DNA from: Pauljensenia sp.
GTDB taxonomy: Bacteria; Actinomycetota; Actinomycetes; Actinomycetales; Actinomycetaceae
Length of the DNA stretch: 64,000 nucleotides
Direction: 5' to 3'
Assembly (NCBI GenBank): GCA_042645485.1
Contig: JBHRQN010000003.1
Coordinates: forward strand, 2,450 to 66,449
Under the pieces are notes generated by a model. The model was not told the origin of the DNA. It worked only from the letters and a program-made list of their open reading frames with translations, and did not search any database. Below are positions 44,137 through 51,878 of this stretch, one piece after another. Numbering within the stretch: the stretch's first letter is position 1; each line of letters starts with the position of its first letter. The position numbers and the translations under genes were made by a program.

Positions 44137-44757
44137 ATGCTCTTCGCGACTTTTATTTCATCTTTCGTTCAGTTGGGAATTGCTCTGCTGATTCCAGCGA
44201 TTTGGTGGGCGGTGACAACTAAGCGTCGCTTGGAATTTGCGACCTGGATTGGTCTTTATGTTCCGACCTGGAAAGTTGGTCCTGTTCAGCGCGTTTCGCA
44301 GAAACAACTGGGCATTGCCTTGGCCTGCTGGGCCGCTGTCTCACTGGCATCACTTCGGATTGCAAGCTCGGTATGGGGTGCTCTGGCGACCTCGCGATTT
44401 ATAGGCGCCGGACTTCTTGCACTCGTCCCGATCCTTCTCTATGCCTTTATTCAGACCGGATTGGCTGAGGAACTATTCTTCCGCGGTTTCTTAGCTAAGC
44501 GCCTATGTTCGTCCTTTGGTTTTTCCCTTGGAAACGCCATTCAAGCCGCTGTGTTTGCTCTTCTTCACTTGCTGTTGTTTATCAACTATCTCCCCGTATT
44601 GAGTCTTGTCGCCATCACGGTCCTTACTGGAATCAATGGCTGGATTATGGGGTGGCTGAACGAACAAGCGGCGGCTGGTTCGGTTATCCCCAGCTGGATG
44701 CTGCACTCTTTGGCAAACCTCTTGGTTGCTCTGGGGACTGCGTTTAATCTTCTGTAG
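44137..44757 (+). CDS. CPBP-family intramembrane glutamic endopeptidase (CAAX protease/Abi family)
   Basis: Motifs EELFFRGF, FALLH and HSLAN in a polytopic protein. Confidence 0.85.
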   Translation: MLFATFISSFVQLGIALLIPAIWWAVTTKRRLEFATWIGLYVPTWKVGPVQRVSQKQLGIALACWAAVSLASLRIASSVWGALATSRFIGAGLLALVPILLYAFIQTGLAEELFFRGFLAKRLCSSFGFSLGNAIQAAVFALLHLLLFINYLPVLSLVAITVLTGINGWIMGWLNEQAAAGSVIPSWMLHSLANLLVALGTAFNLL

Positions 44758-44787
44758 TCTTGAAGCGGACTACTACAGGGGGATCCA

Positions 44788-45663
44788 ATGAATTTTGCGA
44801 CAGCAGTGGCTCAGCCTAATTTCTCGGCTACTCCGCAAAACCCTGATCTGCTCAGATGGGTTGGAATTCAAGTCGCAGTTGTCGTGCTTGCTTGGCTCAT
44901 CGGTATGATCGTTCGCCGTTTCTTGGCCTCGCGAATGACAATGTCCACTGCCTCCGCAACCTTAACTGGCATGCTTGGTATTTGGACTGGACTCCTCTTT
45001 GCGGGTTGGATTTTTTCCGACTCCGATATTTGGCGCCCGGCCATGATCGGTGTTTCGACAGCGGTTGCCATCATTGTTGTCACTGTCTGCGCTCTCATCG
45101 TCGCCTATCTGCATCCGCTTCCCGGCCTTGATCCGATCGCTGACGTTGCCGCGCGAGGAGAATCTGATACGCGCGAATTTAAGTCCAGCGCGCGCTGGAA
45201 TATGCATACCCAGCAACGGGATGATGCGATGGAGACCGTCATTGCCAAGACTGTTGCTGCCTTCATGAATTCCGGTGGCGGAACACTCCTCATCGGTGTT
45301 GATGATGATGGAAAACTCATCGGCTTAGGCCCGGACTATGCGACCTTGAAGAGCCCTGACGCTGATTGTTTTGAACTGTGGATTCGTGATCTGTGGGGAC
45401 AGCGTCTTGGAACTAACGCTGCCGCGTTACCGAGCATCGACTTTGCTCCCGCTACGGATCCCCAAGAGGGTTACGAGGCCCAGGAGGTGTGCCGCGTGGC
45501 TGTTCCTCCCAGCCCGAGGCCGGTTTACCTCCTTGGCCCCAAGGGTAAGGGAACACCCGAGCTGTGGGTTCGCGTGGGGAACTCAACGCGGCGCCTCGAA
45601 ATTCCAGATGCGGTTGAATACATTGCTCACCGCTGGCCTTCTAGCATGCGCACGACATTCTAG
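44788..45663 (+). CDS. Membrane-anchored AlbA_2 / Schlafen-like (AAA_4 N-terminal type) domain protein
   Basis: Three N-terminal TM segments, then ESDTREFKSS...IAKTVAAFMNSGGGTLLIGVDDDGKLIGL, resembling the AlbA_2 divergent-DNA-binding domain core. Confidence 0.6.
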   Translation: MNFATAVAQPNFSATPQNPDLLRWVGIQVAVVVLAWLIGMIVRRFLASRMTMSTASATLTGMLGIWTGLLFAGWIFSDSDIWRPAMIGVSTAVAIIVVTVCALIVAYLHPLPGLDPIADVAARGESDTREFKSSARWNMHTQQRDDAMETVIAKTVAAFMNSGGGTLLIGVDDDGKLIGLGPDYATLKSPDADCFELWIRDLWGQRLGTNAAALPSIDFAPATDPQEGYEAQEVCRVAVPPSPRPVYLLGPKGKGTPELWVRVGNSTRRLEIPDAVEYIAHRWPSSMRTTF

Positions 45664-45785
45664 GGTCGTATTCGCATGTTCCTCTTTACCAGGGGAGGGC
45701 GGCGTGAGCGTCCGGCCGCTCTACCGCGTTCTGTTCAGCGGATCTTGGCGGACTCGGAGGAGTAAGAACCCTCAAAGGGCAGATT

Positions 45786-45815
45786 TAATAAAAACGTATA
45801 AACTATGTTTTATTA
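45786..45815 (+). promoter_or_regulatory. AT-rich imperfect inverted repeat upstream of the DUF2249 gene
   Basis: TAATAAAAAC-N11-GTTTTATTA, about 55 nt before ATG 45870. AT content is strikingly high for this genome. Confidence 0.3.
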
Positions 45816-45869
45816 GAAGCTGATGCTCAGGCGCTTCATTCAGTCGCCGAGCCCCACGAAAGGGATCTC

Positions 45870-46211
45870 ATGATCGAACCTAATTCCGACCTGCCCGAAT
45901 TCGAACTTCGTGATGTTTCTGCCGAAAAGGCCCAGGAGCCTGCTCAGTCCGGTGGATGCGGTTGCGGTTGCGATCACGGTGCTCAGCTTCCGCGATTGGA
46001 TGCACGTCCCTTCCCGCCTCGCCTGCGTCACCCCGCAATCTTGGGTGCCGTTTCTTCTCTGAACGTCGGCGAGGCCATGGAGCTGGTTGCGCCTCACGTG
46101 CCCACGCCGCTTCTTAACCAGATCGATATGACGCTGGAAGGTGAGTTTGCCTACGAACTGGTTGCCGTCAGCGATGAAGGTGCGATTGTTAAAATCTCCC
46201 GCGTTGGCTGA
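45870..46211 (+). CDS. DUF2249-family small protein
   Basis: N-terminal GGCGCGCDHG then LDARPFPPRLRHPAILGAVSSLNVGEAMELVAPH, resembling DUF2249. Confidence 0.65.
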   Translation: MIEPNSDLPEFELRDVSAEKAQEPAQSGGCGCGCDHGAQLPRLDARPFPPRLRHPAILGAVSSLNVGEAMELVAPHVPTPLLNQIDMTLEGEFAYELVAVSDEGAIVKISRVG

Positions 46212-46290
46212 TCAGGAGGTATAGACTGCTCACCTTGAGAGCTTGCGTTCATTCATTAGTACGGGATCGCGCAGGTTCATAGGGGAGTTG

Positions 46291-46330
46291 AAGCGTCCGG
46301 TAGTGGCACACTACCGGACGCTTGTTTTGG
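46291..46330 (+). terminator. Rho-independent terminator; also the left edge of the low-GC island
   Basis: AAGCGTCCGGTAGTG-GCA-CACTACCGGACGCTT followed by GTTTTGG. Confidence 0.85.
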
Positions 46331-46361
46331 GGTGCTGACTGCATGACGGGGTGTGTGACTG

Positions 46362-46391
46362 TTGACGATATTTCTAGGTGAAAAATAAAAT
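46362..46391 (+). promoter_or_regulatory. Candidate sigma-70-type promoter at the island entry
   Basis: TTGACG (46362-46367), 18 nt spacer, TAAAAT (46386-46391). Confidence 0.35.
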
Positions 46392-46655
46392 GTGATACTA
46401 ACGGTCTTTCTGGCGCTTGTGAGAAATTAGGTGTTGAGCTCACGTAGCTTTGGATGAGAGTTACTTTTGTTTCACTTCCCAGTTCAAGTCAAACTTACTT
46501 AGCTGATATTCTTTAGATTTGTAGATTCTGTTTCAGCCGTATGATAGGCTCAATACAACCGGCGAGGTCATAGCATAGAGGCTCCTTGTGCCGTGAACTG
46601 GTGTTGGTGTTATTTTTGTTATTTTTCTGCATGTTTGCGGAGGCGCGCTAAGGAA

Positions 46656-47408
46656 ATGCATACGAAAATTGAGCGGAGGCGACTGATATGGCTCGTATTG
46701 CTTGCTATCTGGCTACTTGTCGTATTGCTTCTGAATTGCTGGGCTTATTTTTTGCTGAGAAATCGACTTGCAGGGAGTGGTCTTGATCCTAATTTGGTCG
46801 TTAAAGTTCTAACAATACCTTTCTTGATGTTCGTCATTTCGTTTCTTTTTCGTTTAGAAAGTGGAAAGGTGAGGAAAGGAGGAGTTGGAGAAAAGATCTG
46901 GGTTGTCCCGTGTGGTCTATATGTGTTCTATTTGGCCGCATATTGTGTTTTCTATGATCTGACGGAGAGCTTTAAAGGCTCGGTGCGCTCATTTTCGGCG
47001 GTGAGTGGCATTATTTCGCCGTATGAAGTGACTATACTATCGTGGATACCACCTTTCGTTATCTCGGTCTTAATACTGTGTTCATCTTTCGAGAGCTTTT
47101 ATTTCAAGCTAGGGTACTATGCGTCTTTCGTTGGCGGTGCGCTCGCAGTTTCAGCCGTATTTCTCCAGGGCTTTCTAAATTCGCTCACACTGCTGGAAAT
47201 TGAGTGCGGTACGCTCGTTGATGAGAAATTTTACCCGCAATGTCAGCAAGAAATTCCGATATTCCATTTTACCCTTGCTGGTTTAGGATCTTTACTTATC
47301 CTTTTCTTAATCGTTTTTTCTTATCTACGGCGAAATCAACGATTAGAAAACATTTTAAAAATAAAACATATTCTCGGGAGTGTGACGATAGGTAAGCGTC
47401 GGCAATAA
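46656..47408 (+). CDS. Hypothetical 6-TM membrane protein with a Cys-containing loop before the last TM (island paralog A)
   Basis: ORF 46593-47408. Start ambiguous: GTG 46593 adds a Cys/aromatic-rich NWCWCYFCYFSAC, ATG 46656 follows AAGGAA. Low GC, no family recognised. Loop LLEIECGTLVDEKFYPQCQQEIPIF. Confidence 0.6.
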   Translation: MHTKIERRRLIWLVLLAIWLLVVLLLNCWAYFLLRNRLAGSGLDPNLVVKVLTIPFLMFVISFLFRLESGKVRKGGVGEKIWVVPCGLYVFYLAAYCVFYDLTESFKGSVRSFSAVSGIISPYEVTILSWIPPFVISVLILCSSFESFYFKLGYYASFVGGALAVSAVFLQGFLNSLTLLEIECGTLVDEKFYPQCQQEIPIFHFTLAGLGSLLILFLIVFSYLRRNQRLENILKIKHILGSVTIGKRRQ

Positions 47409-48032
47409 GGAGTTTTGGGTTACAAATCAATGGTTTAAGCGTGCTTATGCAACCTCTGCCATTGGTGTGTGTAGCGTATATTAACGGAGGCGGCATGTAT
47501 TGCGTACTTAGTTGCTTGATTACGCGTCGGTGTGTCTTTATGTACGATGTTGCTAAGTAAAAGAATATGATGTAATCAAGCGAATACTTGAAAATTGGTG
47601 TGCGGAATTCGGCCGTTTTAAGCTGTGGGAGAAGTTGAGTGCATTGCGATGCTTGTGGAAGTTGCTTGTTGCTTATTAAATAAGGTTGTTTGGGGTTAGG
47701 TGCATTATTGCTCTTGTGAAGTTAGTTAGTGGTTGGTGCGTCAGTCAGAATATATTAGTGTTCTGCTTGGTTTAATTATCTTCCTGCTAGGGGTCTTGAT
47801 TCCTTTTTCGAATTCTGAATATGTTGAGCAAGAGTATTGGCTGAACGTTAGAGTCAGGTGTTTTAATTTTCTGTTTTCAGTATGGTGATGTTGCATTTCT
47901 CCTCGCTATCCGTTTGTCTTTCCTCTGGATCTTCATAAGTGAGAGAGTGAAATTTCTACTTCAATCCGCGGATCGCAGTCAGTGAAGCGTGTCAAAAAAG
48001 ACTGTAATGTCGGTTGGATTTAGAATCTGCGT

Positions 48033-48985
48033 ATGAGTGTTCAGAGTCGACGCAAACCAAGCAAGCTATGTACCGCAATTGTCTACGGGGTAATCTGGGC
48101 TGGTTTGTTGGCTCTTATAGTTTGCTGTGTTTGCGGAACAGTTGCAGAGATTAGGACTCAGGATGAGGGGCGTTATACCGGGGGGGGTATATCGCCCTGT
48201 ACCTTTTCTTCCTACTTATCCTTGCGGTTTTTAGATCTTGCAGGACGGGAGGGGTCGAGGCGTCGAAGTGGCTGTATCTAACAGTGCAGTTGCTGAATTT
48301 TACCGTTCTTTTGGGGGTGTTTAGAGGCGTACTACGCCTTGCAGGTGGGAATGGTTTCGCCTTCTTCCTCGGTAATCCGGAACCTGGAGTTGTTTCCCTC
48401 TATGAAGCGTTCTTTATTTGGTTTCTTTTCCTGGTCGGCGCAGCTCTTCAGATGCTGTCGGTGATGAATGATAAGTATCGAAACGAAATACGTATCGGTG
48501 TCGGCGGCATATTGTTCATCATCAGTATTTTTCTACCGAACATGCTCAGTTCGTTTGCGTTACTACGGGCAATGTGCAGGCGCCCGCTACCGGAAGGGAC
48601 GTGTATCAAGGAGCAATGTCAAACACAAGCAATTGAAACAATCCCGATGTTCACAATGGCAATTGCGTTTTCAGCGGCATTAGCGGTTCTGTTCTTCTTT
48701 ACTATGTTCTCGCCTACAATCGAGCGTTTCATTAGTTCACTAACCGGTGATGGTACTAACGCGAGAGAATCTGGATCGCTTTCAGATGCTCTGGAAGGCG
48801 CTCAGACTCAGCAAAATCTGCCAGGACAAGAGCTTGAAACTGCAGCGCTACCTTCCTCTGCTGAGCCACTACCGCCTGCAGCGAATCGTCATAGCCCTTG
48901 TGGAATTTTTACCGCTGCTGTCCTTGGAGGAGTCGTCGTCTGGGCGATCCAAGCGATTGGAGAACGAACGACCAAACACCGATAA
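48033..48985 (+). pseudogene. Island paralog B: 6/7-TM Cys-loop membrane protein split by a frameshift at a G8 tract (ORFs 48033-48281 and 48284-48985)
   Basis: The frame of the 48284 ORF is open back to 48188, immediately after the G run. One extra G (or two fewer) fuses both ORFs into about 317 aa with a hydrophobic segment YIALYLFFLLILAVF across the junction. Confidence 0.7.
48180..48187 (+). repeat. Homopolymeric G8 tract inside island paralog B
   Basis: Read directly: ...TATACC GGGGGGGG TATATC... Confidence 0.95.
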
Positions 48986-49073
48986 GTCGCTTGCATGCAC
49001 TTGGAACGAATTCTGAATGGAGGCGTGAGTCAAGACGCTATTCTTGAAGAATAACGTTCACACGGAGGCTGGT

Positions 49074-50153
49074 ATGCGCAAAACTCTCCCCAACGACATC
49101 AAAGAAATCCTCGCAAGCGGGGACGTTGAGGCCGTGGCTGAGGCAGTGAAAAACTGCGAGATCGGCGCATATCTGCGGAGCGAATACGGAAAGCCCAAGC
49201 TCTTGCACCTCCTCTGCTCGCAAGAGATCGTCGAGTTCTTGGTCGCTCGAGGCGAGGACATCAACTGTCGCAATGAACGCGGACAAACTCCCATTCACTG
49301 CCGCGTCACGCAACGTCGACCCGATCTGATCCCCGGTCTCATTGCCCTTGGCGGCGATATCAATGCCCGAGATAACACGGACCAAACTCCGTTGTTCGGC
49401 GCTGTCGAACGCCTAGACGCGCCTGAGGTAGAACAGATGATCCAATGGGGCGCTGACCCTACTCTCGATGCGCATTCAAAGATCTATGGGGACTACACCC
49501 TGACGAAGTACGCGCTCAGTTGGTACAACTTGTTTGATTCGCCCAGAATCCTGCGTATTTTCAAAGTTTTATGCGCTCATGGCGCACACCCAAGCGGTGA
49601 GGAATATAAAGCTCTTCAAGCCATGGATAAAGATCGCTGCTCGATCATCGCCCACAGCCCCGAAGACGCTAACAATCCCCGCTTCCTCGAAGCCGCGGAA
49701 GCCTTGCGACAGCTGTGCGAAATGTTCGGCGTCGCTCAGCAAGTTGCGCGTCCCGCCCCAAGCGTTGGAGAAAAGCTCGAGCTCGATCCTTCAAAGAGCT
49801 GGAAGAAACTTTCCAACGAACTCTGGGACTTGCTAGTTCCACTTGATAATCAGGCCGAGACACTTCAAGGCGAAGCCATCAGGATCACGGGCAAGGTTGC
49901 CTACGAGGTCTACGACAATGGCGGCATTAACTGGGAACCGACCTTTAACGCACTTCTCCAGCAATTCCTCGAGATCATTTCCTCCGAGGTCCCCCTCAGT
50001 GCAGACGAGCTTGCGCGCGCCAAGCAAGCAGTGGGGGACCTTCAGGGAGGAAAATCAACCGAGGCCAGCGATGTCTTGAGGGAAGCCGCTGTTCACTGGG
50101 TGTTTGCCAATCCTGTCTTGTACGCAAACACCCTGCCTTTCCTTGGCCGGTAA
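49074..50153 (+). CDS. Ankyrin-repeat protein with an uncharacterised C-terminal domain
   Basis: Trimmed to ATG 49074 behind GGAGG. Ankyrin repeats (GEDINCRNERGQTPIH, GGDINARDNTDQTPLFGAV, WGADPTL). No signal peptide. Confidence 0.75.
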   Translation: MRKTLPNDIKEILASGDVEAVAEAVKNCEIGAYLRSEYGKPKLLHLLCSQEIVEFLVARGEDINCRNERGQTPIHCRVTQRRPDLIPGLIALGGDINARDNTDQTPLFGAVERLDAPEVEQMIQWGADPTLDAHSKIYGDYTLTKYALSWYNLFDSPRILRIFKVLCAHGAHPSGEEYKALQAMDKDRCSIIAHSPEDANNPRFLEAAEALRQLCEMFGVAQQVARPAPSVGEKLELDPSKSWKKLSNELWDLLVPLDNQAETLQGEAIRITGKVAYEVYDNGGINWEPTFNALLQQFLEIISSEVPLSADELARAKQAVGDLQGGKSTEASDVLREAAVHWVFANPVLYANTLPFLGR

Positions 50154-50162
50154 ATACCAGCT

Positions 50163-51878
50163 TTACTCTTCGCTGCCCTTACGGCGGCGCACCCGCTTTC
50201 GTGGTGCGGGCGAGTGCTCGCCTCGGCCTCGGCCCTTGGTTCCGCGGTCAGAACGTCCCTGCTTTCCGGAATTCAGTGTCTGATCACCATCCTTGCGGGT
50301 ACGGCGTCGGGTGCGAGTCCGCTCGCCGGAAGCTGAACGCTCCCTGCGTCCTCCCGAGCGGGCGGAGGAACGACCACCGCGGCCTCGGCCTCGTCCACGG
50401 CGGGAAGGAGCGCCCAAATCCTCAAGCTTTTCGGCGCCAAGTCCCTCGCGCGTACGCTTCGCACGAGGCAAGCGCCCAGTGACGTCCTCGGGAATATCCA
50501 AGTCCGTGTACAGGTGCGGCGAGGTGTGGTAGGTCTCCAGAGGTTCGGGAACTCCCAAGCCTAGCGCCTTCGAAATCAACGACCAGCGCGGGACATCGTC
50601 CCAATCCACGAAGGTCACGGCTGTACCAGAATTCCCCGCGCGACCGGTGCGACCAATGCGGTGGATGTAGACCTTCTCGTCCTCGGGGCACTGGTAGTTG
50701 ATGACGTGGGTGACATCGTCAACGTCGATGCCACGCGCAGCAACATCGGTTGCAACCAAAACATCGACCTTGCCATTACGGAAAGCACGTAGAGCCTGCT
50801 CGCGCGCACCCTGACCGAGGTCGCCGTGAAGTGCGGCAACCGCGAAACCGCGCTCGCTGAGCTCGTCGGCAACGCGCGCAGCCGCACGCTTGGTACGACA
50901 GAAAATCACAGCGCGACCGCGGCCTCGTGCCTGCAAGATACGCGCAACGATCTCGGTCTTGTTCATGGCGTGAGCGCGGTAGATCACCTGCTGGACCGTG
51001 TTGACGGTCTGTCCCTGATCGTCAGGATCTTGCGCGCGAATATGGGTCGGCTGGGTCATGAACTTACGAGCCAGCGTGATCACCGGGCCGGGCATGGTTG
51101 CCGAGAAAAGCATCATGTGACGGTCCGCGGGAATACGCGAAAGCAAAGTTTCCACGTCCGGGAGGAAGCCCAGGTCAAGCATCTCGTCGGCCTCGTCAAG
51201 GACAACGTTTTCCACGCCGTTCAGGTGCAGCACGCCTTGACGGAGCAAATCGATCAAACGCCCGGGGGTACCGACGACGATATCCGCGCCTCGCTTGAGT
51301 GCGTCAATCTGGGGTTCAAAAGCAACGCCGCCGTAGATGTCAACGATGCGCGTCGACAGGTGCGAGGCTGCCGCCCGGAGATCTTCGGCCACCTGCTTGG
51401 TGAGCTCGCGGGTCGGCAAAATGATGAGTGCCTGCGGCATATTCGGATTGAGAAGGTCCTCGTAGCCCTCTTCATCCGGGGCGATGACGTCTTCTAAGAC
51501 GGGGATGCCAAATCCCAGAGTCTTACCGGTACCGGTCTTGGCCTGACCGATGATGTCGTGGCGATCCAGTGCGACGGGAAGAGTCAGGGCCTGGATCGGG
51601 AAGGGGTGGGTGATGCCGCGTTCTTCAAGCGCATCAACGATGGGGTCACTGACCCCGAAATCAGCGAAAGACTTCGCTTCGAAAGTTTCATTTCCCGAGT
51701 TCGTAATATCGGGGGTGGTTTCATCTTCTTGGGTCGAAGGGGCTTTGATTGAGCCCAAACGTACGACGCCAGCAGAGTAGTCAGACGGTGAAGTCACGAT
51801 CAACCTGTTCTGGGAAAAACCCGTTGGAAATTGCAGCCGATCGCGGTTCTTCTTCAAGGGGCATAGGTGCCCGGGCAA
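50163..51878 (-). CDS. DEAD-box ATP-dependent RNA helicase with an Arg/Gly-rich C-terminal tail
   Basis: Q motif FPIQ, AKTGTGKT, VLDEADEMLD, SAT, HRIGRTGRAG. True start uncertain (possibly an internal GTG/TTG upstream of the Q motif). Confidence 0.88.
   Translation of the reverse strand: MPGHLCPLKKNRDRLQFPTGFSQNRLIVTSPSDYSAGVVRLGSIKAPSTQEDETTPDITNSGNETFEAKSFADFGVSDPIVDALEERGITHPFPIQALTLPVALDRHDIIGQAKTGTGKTLGFGIPVLEDVIAPDEEGYEDLLNPNMPQALIILPTRELTKQVAEDLRAAASHLSTRIVDIYGGVAFEPQIDALKRGADIVVGTPGRLIDLLRQGVLHLNGVENVVLDEADEMLDLGFLPDVETLLSRIPADRHMMLFSATMPGPVITLARKFMTQPTHIRAQDPDDQGQTVNTVQQVIYRAHAMNKTEIVARILQARGRGRAVIFCRTKRAAARVADELSERGFAVAALHGDLGQGAREQALRAFRNGKVDVLVATDVAARGIDVDDVTHVINYQCPEDEKVYIHRIGRTGRAGNSGTAVTFVDWDDVPRWSLISKALGLGVPEPLETYHTSPHLYTDLDIPEDVTGRLPRAKRTREGLGAEKLEDLGAPSRRGRGRGRGGRSSARSGGRRERSASGERTRTRRRTRKDGDQTLNSGKQGRSDRGTKGRGRGEHSPAPRKRVRRRKGSEE

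Follow-up and report, generated by a model that had tools for sequence, protein, structure and literature searches.

A frame-breaking G8 tract in the gene for a predicted seven-helix membrane protein of Pauljensenia, and its length variation among oral relatives

A gene broken at a G8 run

The window analysed here is a stretch of 64,000 nucleotides (nt) from Pauljensenia sp. (assembly GCA_042645485.1, contig JBHRQN010000003.1, positions 2,450 to 66,449 of the forward strand). On its plus strand, at 48033-48985, lies gene B, a lineage-restricted gene delineated by open reading frame (ORF) analysis, homologues and transmembrane (TM) prediction. Its product is predicted to be a membrane protein with seven TM segments (7-TM) and would comprise 316 amino acids (aa) if intact, but the gene is frameshifted here at a homopolymer of eight G residues (G8; 48180-48187, plus strand). 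The tract occurs in the sequence context CGTTATACC-GGGGGGGG-TATATCGCC (wider reading GAGGGGCGTTATACC-GGGGGGGG-TATATCGCCCTG) and corresponds to codons 50-51 (GGG GGG, Gly-Gly) of the intact allele, in which the run is G6, plus two additional G residues.

Gene B is represented in the window by two ORFs, both on the plus strand. The 82-aa ORF (48033-48281) contains the true N-terminus (cytoplasmic tail, TM1 and loop 1 in the predicted topology; residues 1-51) followed by about 30 out-of-frame residues, and its exact product has no entry in the protein catalogue. The 233-aa ORF (48284-48985) covers the 3' part of the gene (TM3-TM7) from the first available GTG, and its exact product is annotated in NCBI as MFC2730285.1, 'MAG: hypothetical protein [Pauljensenia sp.]'. 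The original prediction that these ORFs are two frames of one gene is confirmed by the ORFs themselves, the frame arithmetic and more than 100 full-length homologues: this is a single gene broken at the G-run. Annotators should be aware that the 233-aa entry MFC2730285.1 represents no more than the 3' end of a disrupted 316-aa gene. The downstream frame is open, as had been stated; however, it does not start at 48188, directly after the tract, but is open already from 48167, straight after a TGA at 48164-48166, and continues for 819 nt without a stop. Editing the tract in silico to G9 or to G6 restores an ORF of 317 or 316 aa, respectively, as anticipated, whereas with G7 the gene is still broken. 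The repaired protein regains a second TM helix (residues 48-66), for a total of seven predicted TM segments.

The G8 run was also said to stand out, and it does: no other homopolymer in the whole window reaches 7 bases. Under a first-order Markov model of the window, 1.4 G/C runs of at least 8, 6.0 of at least 7 and 24.7 of at least 6 are expected per 64 kb, and the respective counts are one, one (the same run) and 6. By composition alone the G8 run is not improbable, but it stands apart in this genome, in which runs are otherwise avoided. The run is meaningful because its position is the exact frame break of a gene that is unbroken in more than 100 homologues.

Homologues and predicted topology of the gene B product

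A search with the repaired gene B protein retrieved 170 proteins, most of which are 311-327 aa long and cover the query end to end. The full-length homologues (more than 100) come from oral Actinomyces/Pauljensenia metagenomes, and the relatives are labelled Actinomyces sp., oral taxon 181 among them. No Pfam domain was detected in any of the 170 proteins; Pfam and PADLOC scans assigned no family to gene B or to its distant paralog in the window, paralog A (see below), and for ten distant family members, Pfam hits were confined to DUF and Ank matches below threshold. When 1.84 billion representatives were searched exhaustively with a profile, 53 family members were recovered. Judging by these searches, the gene B family appears to be narrow and uncharacterised, and restricted to oral Actinomyces/Schaalia/Pauljensenia.

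Hydropathy predicts TM segments at residues 16-34, 48-66, 82-100, approximately 122-142, 159-177, 203-221 and 290-308, with a low-complexity linker preceding the last one. An AlphaFold model built from a 59-sequence alignment contains the same seven helices, but its confidence (predicted local distance difference test, pLDDT, 43.4; predicted template modelling score, pTM, 0.20) is too poor for use. The tract codes for Gly50-Gly51, at the predicted junction of loop 1 and TM2. No part of the alignment varies more than loop 1 (residues ~44-51), which reads DEGRYTGG, DEGRYTQG, DEGRYTEA, TIGDSARS, AVEGFARS and others in different family members, and this hypervariable, tract-carrying loop is probably extracytoplasmic.

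Tract length in related alleles

The DNA of relatives was taken from ENA, Logan, JGI and NCBI assemblies and was mostly fetched by exact protein sequence. This procedure biases the sampling, so that locus counts are not frequencies, and the within-haplotype uniformity of the fetched loci was not used as evidence. A metagenome pattern scan contributed three loci; a GTDB genome scan contributed three loci, all uncultured Actinomyces metagenome-assembled genomes (MAGs). The tract census was restricted to loci with identical flanks (GGGGCGTTATACC...TATATCG).

Tract length, for which the original prediction had proposed a comparison across strains, varies among them, with G5, G6, G7 and G8 all present in the census. 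G6 was found in 26 loci representing at least six haplotypes; over the first 268 nt, these backgrounds share 82-99% identity with the window. G7 is carried by L001 (ERZ25891042), L002 (SRR31403969), L004 (ERZ773250), L022 (ERZ28641378), L023 (ERR7520808) and L042 (ERZ27319680), G5 by L028 (ERZ28666787) and L029 (ERZ27256071), and G8 by the window and L019 (Logan assembly of SRR28645810). In G7 alleles, an internal ATG (48163-48165 in the window, plus strand) is in frame with the downstream part of the gene, and gene callers predict from it a 273-aa product beginning MRGVIPGGYIALY; in G8, this ATG is out of frame.

The closest full-length homologues (P0001, P0002, P0004, P0151 and P0137; up to 98% identity) are all 316 aa long and read ...RYTGGYIALY..., that is, G6, the DNA of the intact allele being ACC GGG GGG TAT (Thr-Gly-Gly-Tyr). 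The three-glycine (G9) form is absent among the proteins and loci found. Although G9 restores the frame in silico, the natural intact length thus appears to be G6 (316 aa) and not G9, to judge from the homologues.

Catalogue counts give a coarser impression of how common the different alleles are, but one less subject to circularity. The commonest tract-bearing allele type, P0135 (G6), occurs in 51 index blocks and its G7 twin, P0140, on 3 contigs; the G7 types P0015, P0018 and P0044 are found on 2, 1 and 4 contigs, respectively, and the G5 type P0077 on 2 contigs. By a rough tally of catalogue contig counts, about one tenth of the assembled tract-bearing alleles are out of frame. Across the family, TGG is present at the tract site in approximately 24 of the 170 protein types (~14%), the remainder having TQG, TEG, TEA, TGA or ARS; in related alleles, the DNA at this site is interrupted, for example, ACCGAGGCG in L006 and ACCCAGGGA in L024/L041.

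Recurrent length changes at the tract

Gene distances were computed with the tract itself excluded. The window gene (G8) differs from those of L001/L002 (G7) by one substitution in ~950 nt, and a single substitution also separates L022/L023 (G7) from L003/L014/L015 (G6). The G5 allele represents a third background, 48 differences away from its nearest neighbour, whereas L004 (G7) is a recombinant that resembles the window's clade in its 5' part and shows 40-45 differences overall. At least four independent tract-length changes can be counted (G6 to G7 twice, G6 to G5, and G7 to G8), two of them between haplotypes that are one substitution apart. Five independent 1-nt frameshift events were identified in gene B, of which at least four fall within the tract, although it makes up less than 1% of the gene length. 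The G7 and G8 alleles have the features by which homopolymer tracts are defined (a run of at least 7 with homoplastic ±1 indels), and G7 occurs on at least two unrelated backgrounds. Recombination may be behind the G7 of L004, the 5' segment of which is common with the window's clade; as the sole source of G7 on several backgrounds, recombination was ruled out by L022/L023, which are one substitution away from their G6 sisters. Comparison of the alleles points to the tract as a real slipped-strand hot spot.

Under the mechanism that we propose, the starting step would be replication slippage on the GGGGGG of the two glycine codons. The gains would have occurred in the order G6 to G7, in the haplotype of the window, and then G7 to G8, in this strain, both lengths being out of frame. 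Slippage intermediates would go uncorrected, plausibly because Actinomycetota, among which this strain is placed as a member of the Actinomycetaceae, lack MutS/MutL and because NucS is described as transition-specific. Indeed, MutS-MutL is missing from almost all Actinobacteria (PMC5290159), and NucS repair is specific to transitions (PMC8228993). In the G8 allele, translation from the ATG at 48033 would stop at 48281, after TM1, loop 1 and about 30 missense residues, and TM2-TM7 would not be made or, at most, a fragment would be produced from the GTG at 48284.

Rates measured in mycobacteria provide a scale for these events. In M. smegmatis, a 7G tract undergoes a +1 shift at 3.1e-8 per generation, and in M. 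tuberculosis, homopolymer-tract indels amount to 9340/kbp compared to 243/kbp for single-nucleotide variants, a ~38-fold excess (PMC10334774). When the M. tuberculosis ratio is applied to the 3.6 kb common with L002 (5 single-nucleotide polymorphisms), about 0.7 tract events are expected in two runs, and 2 were observed, which would be compatible with ordinary hot-spot behaviour.

Other lesions in gene B and its paralog

Gene B is disrupted at other sites as well. A G4 run (GAGGGGCG; 48167-48170, plus strand) is located 10 nt upstream of the tract, and the homologous run is shortened from G4 to G3 in a tract-less allele (RYTQGY), with a resulting frameshift: L024-L026 read GAGGGAGG where L041 (GCA_001070095.1) has GAGGGGAGG (~1330-1345 in L024-L026 and ~1620-1640 in L041). 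This allele is otherwise one substitution away from the intact L041 and is present in at least three sequencing runs.

Further downstream, the segment 48770-48795 (plus strand), which is intact in the window, contains two TCTGGA direct repeats (48770-48775 and 48790-48795). In many relatives, 20 nt (48770-48789 in the window) are deleted, which results in a 269-aa form ending ARESGRRSESVKSARRRARNCSATFLC, without the linker and TM7. The deletion was found in L003, L008-L018 and L022-L023, on the N-terminal backgrounds P0135, P0150, P0073 and P0168; therefore, it is either recurrent or has been spread by recombination. P0135, the commonest tract-bearing allele, carries the deletion, and P0140 has G7 and the deletion together. 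The truncated form, with six TM segments (6-TM) and thus the architecture of paralog A, may be functional. The G4-to-G3 allele suggests that loss of gene B function by routes other than the tract is tolerated.

Three family members of 327 aa (P0012, P0021 and P0167) carry an 11-residue tandem duplication (TIERFITKLSS-TIERFISSL) after TM6, in a region homologous to window positions ~48710-48745. This is a further slippage-type length variant of gene B.

Paralog A (46656-47408, plus strand; 250 aa here) is a distant 6-TM homologue of gene B, recognised by BLASTP, its TM helices and a bridging homologue, P0208. The claim that the repaired gene B protein is co-linear with paralog A holds for the six TM helices, which are co-linear in the two proteins, but the relationship is distant (BLASTP E = 2e-6 over 65 aa, spanning TM5-loop-TM6, with the common motif Cys...QCQ..IP.F). 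Paralog A contains a T6 run (47314-47319, plus strand) in the window and in L019, whereas seven other loci (L001, L002, L004, L008, L020, L021 and L042) have T7. The T7 frame yields a C-terminal tail that is conserved in the more distant homologues P0172-P0174, so that T6 appears to be a derived frameshift that exchanges about 26 residues at the C-terminal end. In this genome, the two islet paralogs would therefore both carry derived homopolymer frameshifts.

Loss of function or evolved switch

With a probability of roughly 60%, we interpret G8 as a loss-of-function allele, recent and in principle open to reversion, of a dispensable, fast-evolving and hypervariable protein with a predicted 7-TM topology, generated at a slow hot spot rather than by an evolved high-frequency ON/OFF switch. 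The window's clade (its haplotype or the 5' part of it) is out of frame in all five samples, namely, L001, L002, L042 and L004 (G7) and the window (G8), and L042 shows 21 mismatches to the window in 4 kb (99.4% identity). The OFF state therefore lasted while substitutions built up and the lineage spread between hosts. All the tract changes that we infer either leave G6 or stay OFF (G7 to G8), and no OFF clade with a re-derived ON allele was seen in this small and biased sampling. Downstream of G8, no further lesions were found: the 819-nt frame is open and one substitution away from the G7 alleles, and, given that there is no further decay, the lesion is probably recent. Of the fixed-pseudogene alternative in the original prediction, what survives is the broken allele; a decayed pseudogene would be expected to show additional lesions in a frame that is, in fact, undecayed.

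Several points weigh against this interpretation. With the downstream frame undecayed, the gene could be switched back ON by a -2 or a +1 change. The tract is located early in the gene, in a variable loop predicted to be exposed, which is the classical position for a contingency locus. In all 26 G6 loci, GGGGGG is uninterrupted, and synonymous GGC or GGT codons do not occur even though the surrounding sequence diverges by up to 18%; this could reflect a maintained tract or merely a shared recombining segment. Metagenome consensus could be masking heterogeneity within populations, in which case the rate would be higher than estimated, and the allele frequencies are rough, since sampling by exact protein sequence is biased.

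A rival reading is that of a genuine contingency locus, that is, a selected, rapidly reversible slipped-strand switch that sets a surface protein to ON (G6, G9) or OFF (G5, G7, G8), for example, in response to phage or host antibody, with the window captured in the OFF phase. The length of the repeat within the ORF does set the frame, and length polymorphism does recur in close relatives, with four natural tract lengths and at least four independent changes, including the two between near-identical haplotypes. The 5'-proximal site in the hypervariable loop of a predicted multi-pass membrane protein, the continuity of the tract in the 26 G6 loci and the undecayed downstream frame all point in the same direction, and there are precedents in the pilus G-tract switch of B. 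breve (PMC9187656) and in the homopolymer-tract phase variation of M. tuberculosis (PMC10334774). Against these stands the length of the ON tract: the in-frame state in nature is merely G6, whereas hypermutable tracts are G9-G12 in B. breve and at least 7 nt in M. tuberculosis. The repeat, although uninterrupted within the TGG alleles, is not kept across alleles, being missing from ~85% of the allele types. Tract length follows haplotype in the catalogue counts, as seen in the P0135 type (51 index blocks with G6 against 3 contigs with G7), and the window's clade is always OFF. G8 is two steps away from the ON length, with no G9 among the proteins and loci found, and the frameshifts elsewhere in gene B suggest that loss of function is simply tolerated. 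All considered, a selected switch is a possible but unlikely explanation. Thus, of the slipped-strand phase-variation switch originally predicted, slippage is retained (G5-G8 among strains) and the dedicated switch is disfavoured by tract conservation and ON length. No relevant paper emerged from a literature search for phase variation in Actinomyces. A more elaborate version, a working three-state switch in which G6/G9 would yield the full 7-TM protein, G7 a 273-aa N-terminally truncated isoform from the ATG at 48163, and G5/G8 a null, appears doubtful. In that version, the switched protein, with its hypervariable loop, would be a neighbour of the Schlafen/AlbA_2 and ankyrin genes in a mobile low-GC islet and so could be a phage receptor or a defence component.

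The third possibility, also raised in the original prediction, is that G8 is a sequencing or assembly error and that the true tract is G6, G9 or G7. The window does come from a MAG; G8 and the T6 of paralog A are both unique to this sample and are both error types of sequencing platforms, and the difficulty of Illumina sequencing with G-tracts is documented (PMC9187656). However, in the Logan assembly of SRR28645810 (L019), 4921 nt including the G8 run match the window at 100% identity, so that two assemblers give the same sequence across 4.9 kb. L019 is most likely the same sample processed with another assembler, probably from the same reads, and hence would not be an independent sample. The conserved genes of the window are free of frameshifts and its long ORFs are unbroken, by which a platform with systematic homopolymer errors was rejected. 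In the alignments with L001 (12.8 kb) and L007 (~10 kb), 1-nt indels, like homopolymer discrepancies, are limited to the G-tract, the T-run of paralog A and one apparently intergenic G4/G3 difference that is attributable to L001. Furthermore, G7 and G5 were each found under differing sample accessions, independently in several other assemblies, so that out-of-frame alleles exist in nature, and a true G7 misread as G8 would leave the gene broken as well. An artefact is accordingly improbable.

The least credible option is recoding, whereby the split would be only apparent and a full-length protein would be produced from the G8 allele: a -1 ribosomal frameshift on G_GGG_GGG would indeed set ribosomes in the downstream frame, but G-runs are poor slippery sites relative to A/U runs, the tract is overlapped only by a weak 5-bp hairpin with no strong stimulatory structure downstream, and programmed recoding was rejected because the out-of-frame junction is not conserved, nearly all homologues being single in-frame ORFs (mostly 311-327 aa) without the run. 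Transcriptional slippage, the other form that recoding could take, can be favoured by homopolymer runs (review PMC5009743) and is, against the same homologues, equally hard to credit.

Comparison with known systems

By analogy, the tract of gene B would work like the homopolymer-tract variants of mycobacteria. The homopolymer-tract frameshifts of the M. tuberculosis complex (glpK 7C, espA-upstream and others; PMC10334774, bioRxiv 10.1101/717272) are found in the same phylum and similarly involve an intragenic G/C run of 7-8 nt, repeated ±1 frameshifts on differing backgrounds, a loss of function that is reversible in principle and a modest rate. In M. tuberculosis, however, reversion and phenotypes have been shown experimentally, whereas here the functional allele is G6, below the 7-nt criterion, and most alleles lack the tract. 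The G-tract switch of the sortase-dependent pilus in B. breve UCC2003 (PMC9187656) also belongs to a host-associated actinobacterial commensal, and there, too, a G-run, located within the first gene, gives rise to 'a' and 'b' ORFs in the reference, with one tract length yielding a fused ORF (encoding a surface structure in B. breve). The B. breve tracts are G9-G12, with heterogeneity of tens of percent by maximum-depth sequencing, in contrast to the G5-G8 seen here in consensus assemblies, where the common state is in frame.

Ordinary pseudogenisation by short-run indels would likewise produce several disabling lesions across strains (G4 to G3, G6 to G5/G7/G8 and the 20-nt deletion) in a low-GC, variably present islet. 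Gene B departs from that pattern in that the tract accounts for at least four of the five 1-nt frameshift events and that the broken gene lacks secondary decay. Classical contingency tracts are longer, conserved across strains and switch at approximately 1e-2 to 1e-5 per generation; such conservation across strains fails for gene B. The resemblance to the contingency loci of Neisseria, Haemophilus and Campylobacter (poly-G/C; e.g. PMC5084427) consists in slippage of a 5'-proximal coding repeat that shifts the frame of a predicted envelope protein.

On present evidence, gene B mainly provides a clear-cut case from nature of a well-known process: in a phylum that is generally without MutS/MutL, ±1 indels strike a short G-run of an accessory gene time and again. 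Homopolymer phase variation in Actinomycetota has been documented so far only for Mycobacterium and Bifidobacterium, and if the tract switched at high frequency, this phenomenon would be extended to the abundant oral Actinomyces/Pauljensenia commensals. A true switch would be the first phase-variable envelope protein based on a simple sequence repeat in the Actinomyces/Schaalia/Pauljensenia group, and it would mark the uncharacterised, hypervariable 7-TM family as one on which phage or host pressure acts.

The surrounding low-GC islet

Gene B resides in a low-GC stretch (40-48%, versus 55.7% for the window), within an interval between a DUF2249 gene and a DEAD-box helicase gene. The content of this interval is strain-dependent: some strains lack the Schlafen/AlbA_2 gene, some paralog A and some the ankyrin gene. 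Positions 44500-49000 of the window (AlbA_2, DUF2249, paralog A and gene B) are 99.4-100% identical to L001, compared to 81-97% identity in the flanks, suggesting that strains have recently exchanged the low-GC islet by recombination or transfer. An Rfam scan detected only tRNA, far from gene B, and a promoter/terminator scan near gene B gave nothing above shuffle expectation.

The gene for an ankyrin-repeat protein (49044-50153, plus strand) is located directly downstream of gene B and is present or absent in relatives together with parts of the islet. For its product, PADLOC gives a match to the candidate defence family PDC-M72A (E = 5e-13), and this match may reflect ankyrin-repeat similarity only. 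In P0198 (575 aa), a distant member of the gene B family, a weak ankyrin match is apparently fused to the 6-TM domain, hinting at a functional link. The Schlafen/AlbA_2 protein encoded at 44788-45663 is TM-anchored at its N-terminus.

At the other end of the interval, in L041 (3423-3951; GCA_001070095.1), an ISL3-family transposase takes the place of the DEAD-box helicase neighbour downstream of the ankyrin gene, another sign of a rearrangement hot spot. In the window, the 3' end of the helicase gene (50000-50500, minus strand) encodes an Arg/Gly-rich C-terminal tail that is 81% identical to that of L001, with in-frame 27-nt and 3-nt indels, and is far more variable than the helicase core.

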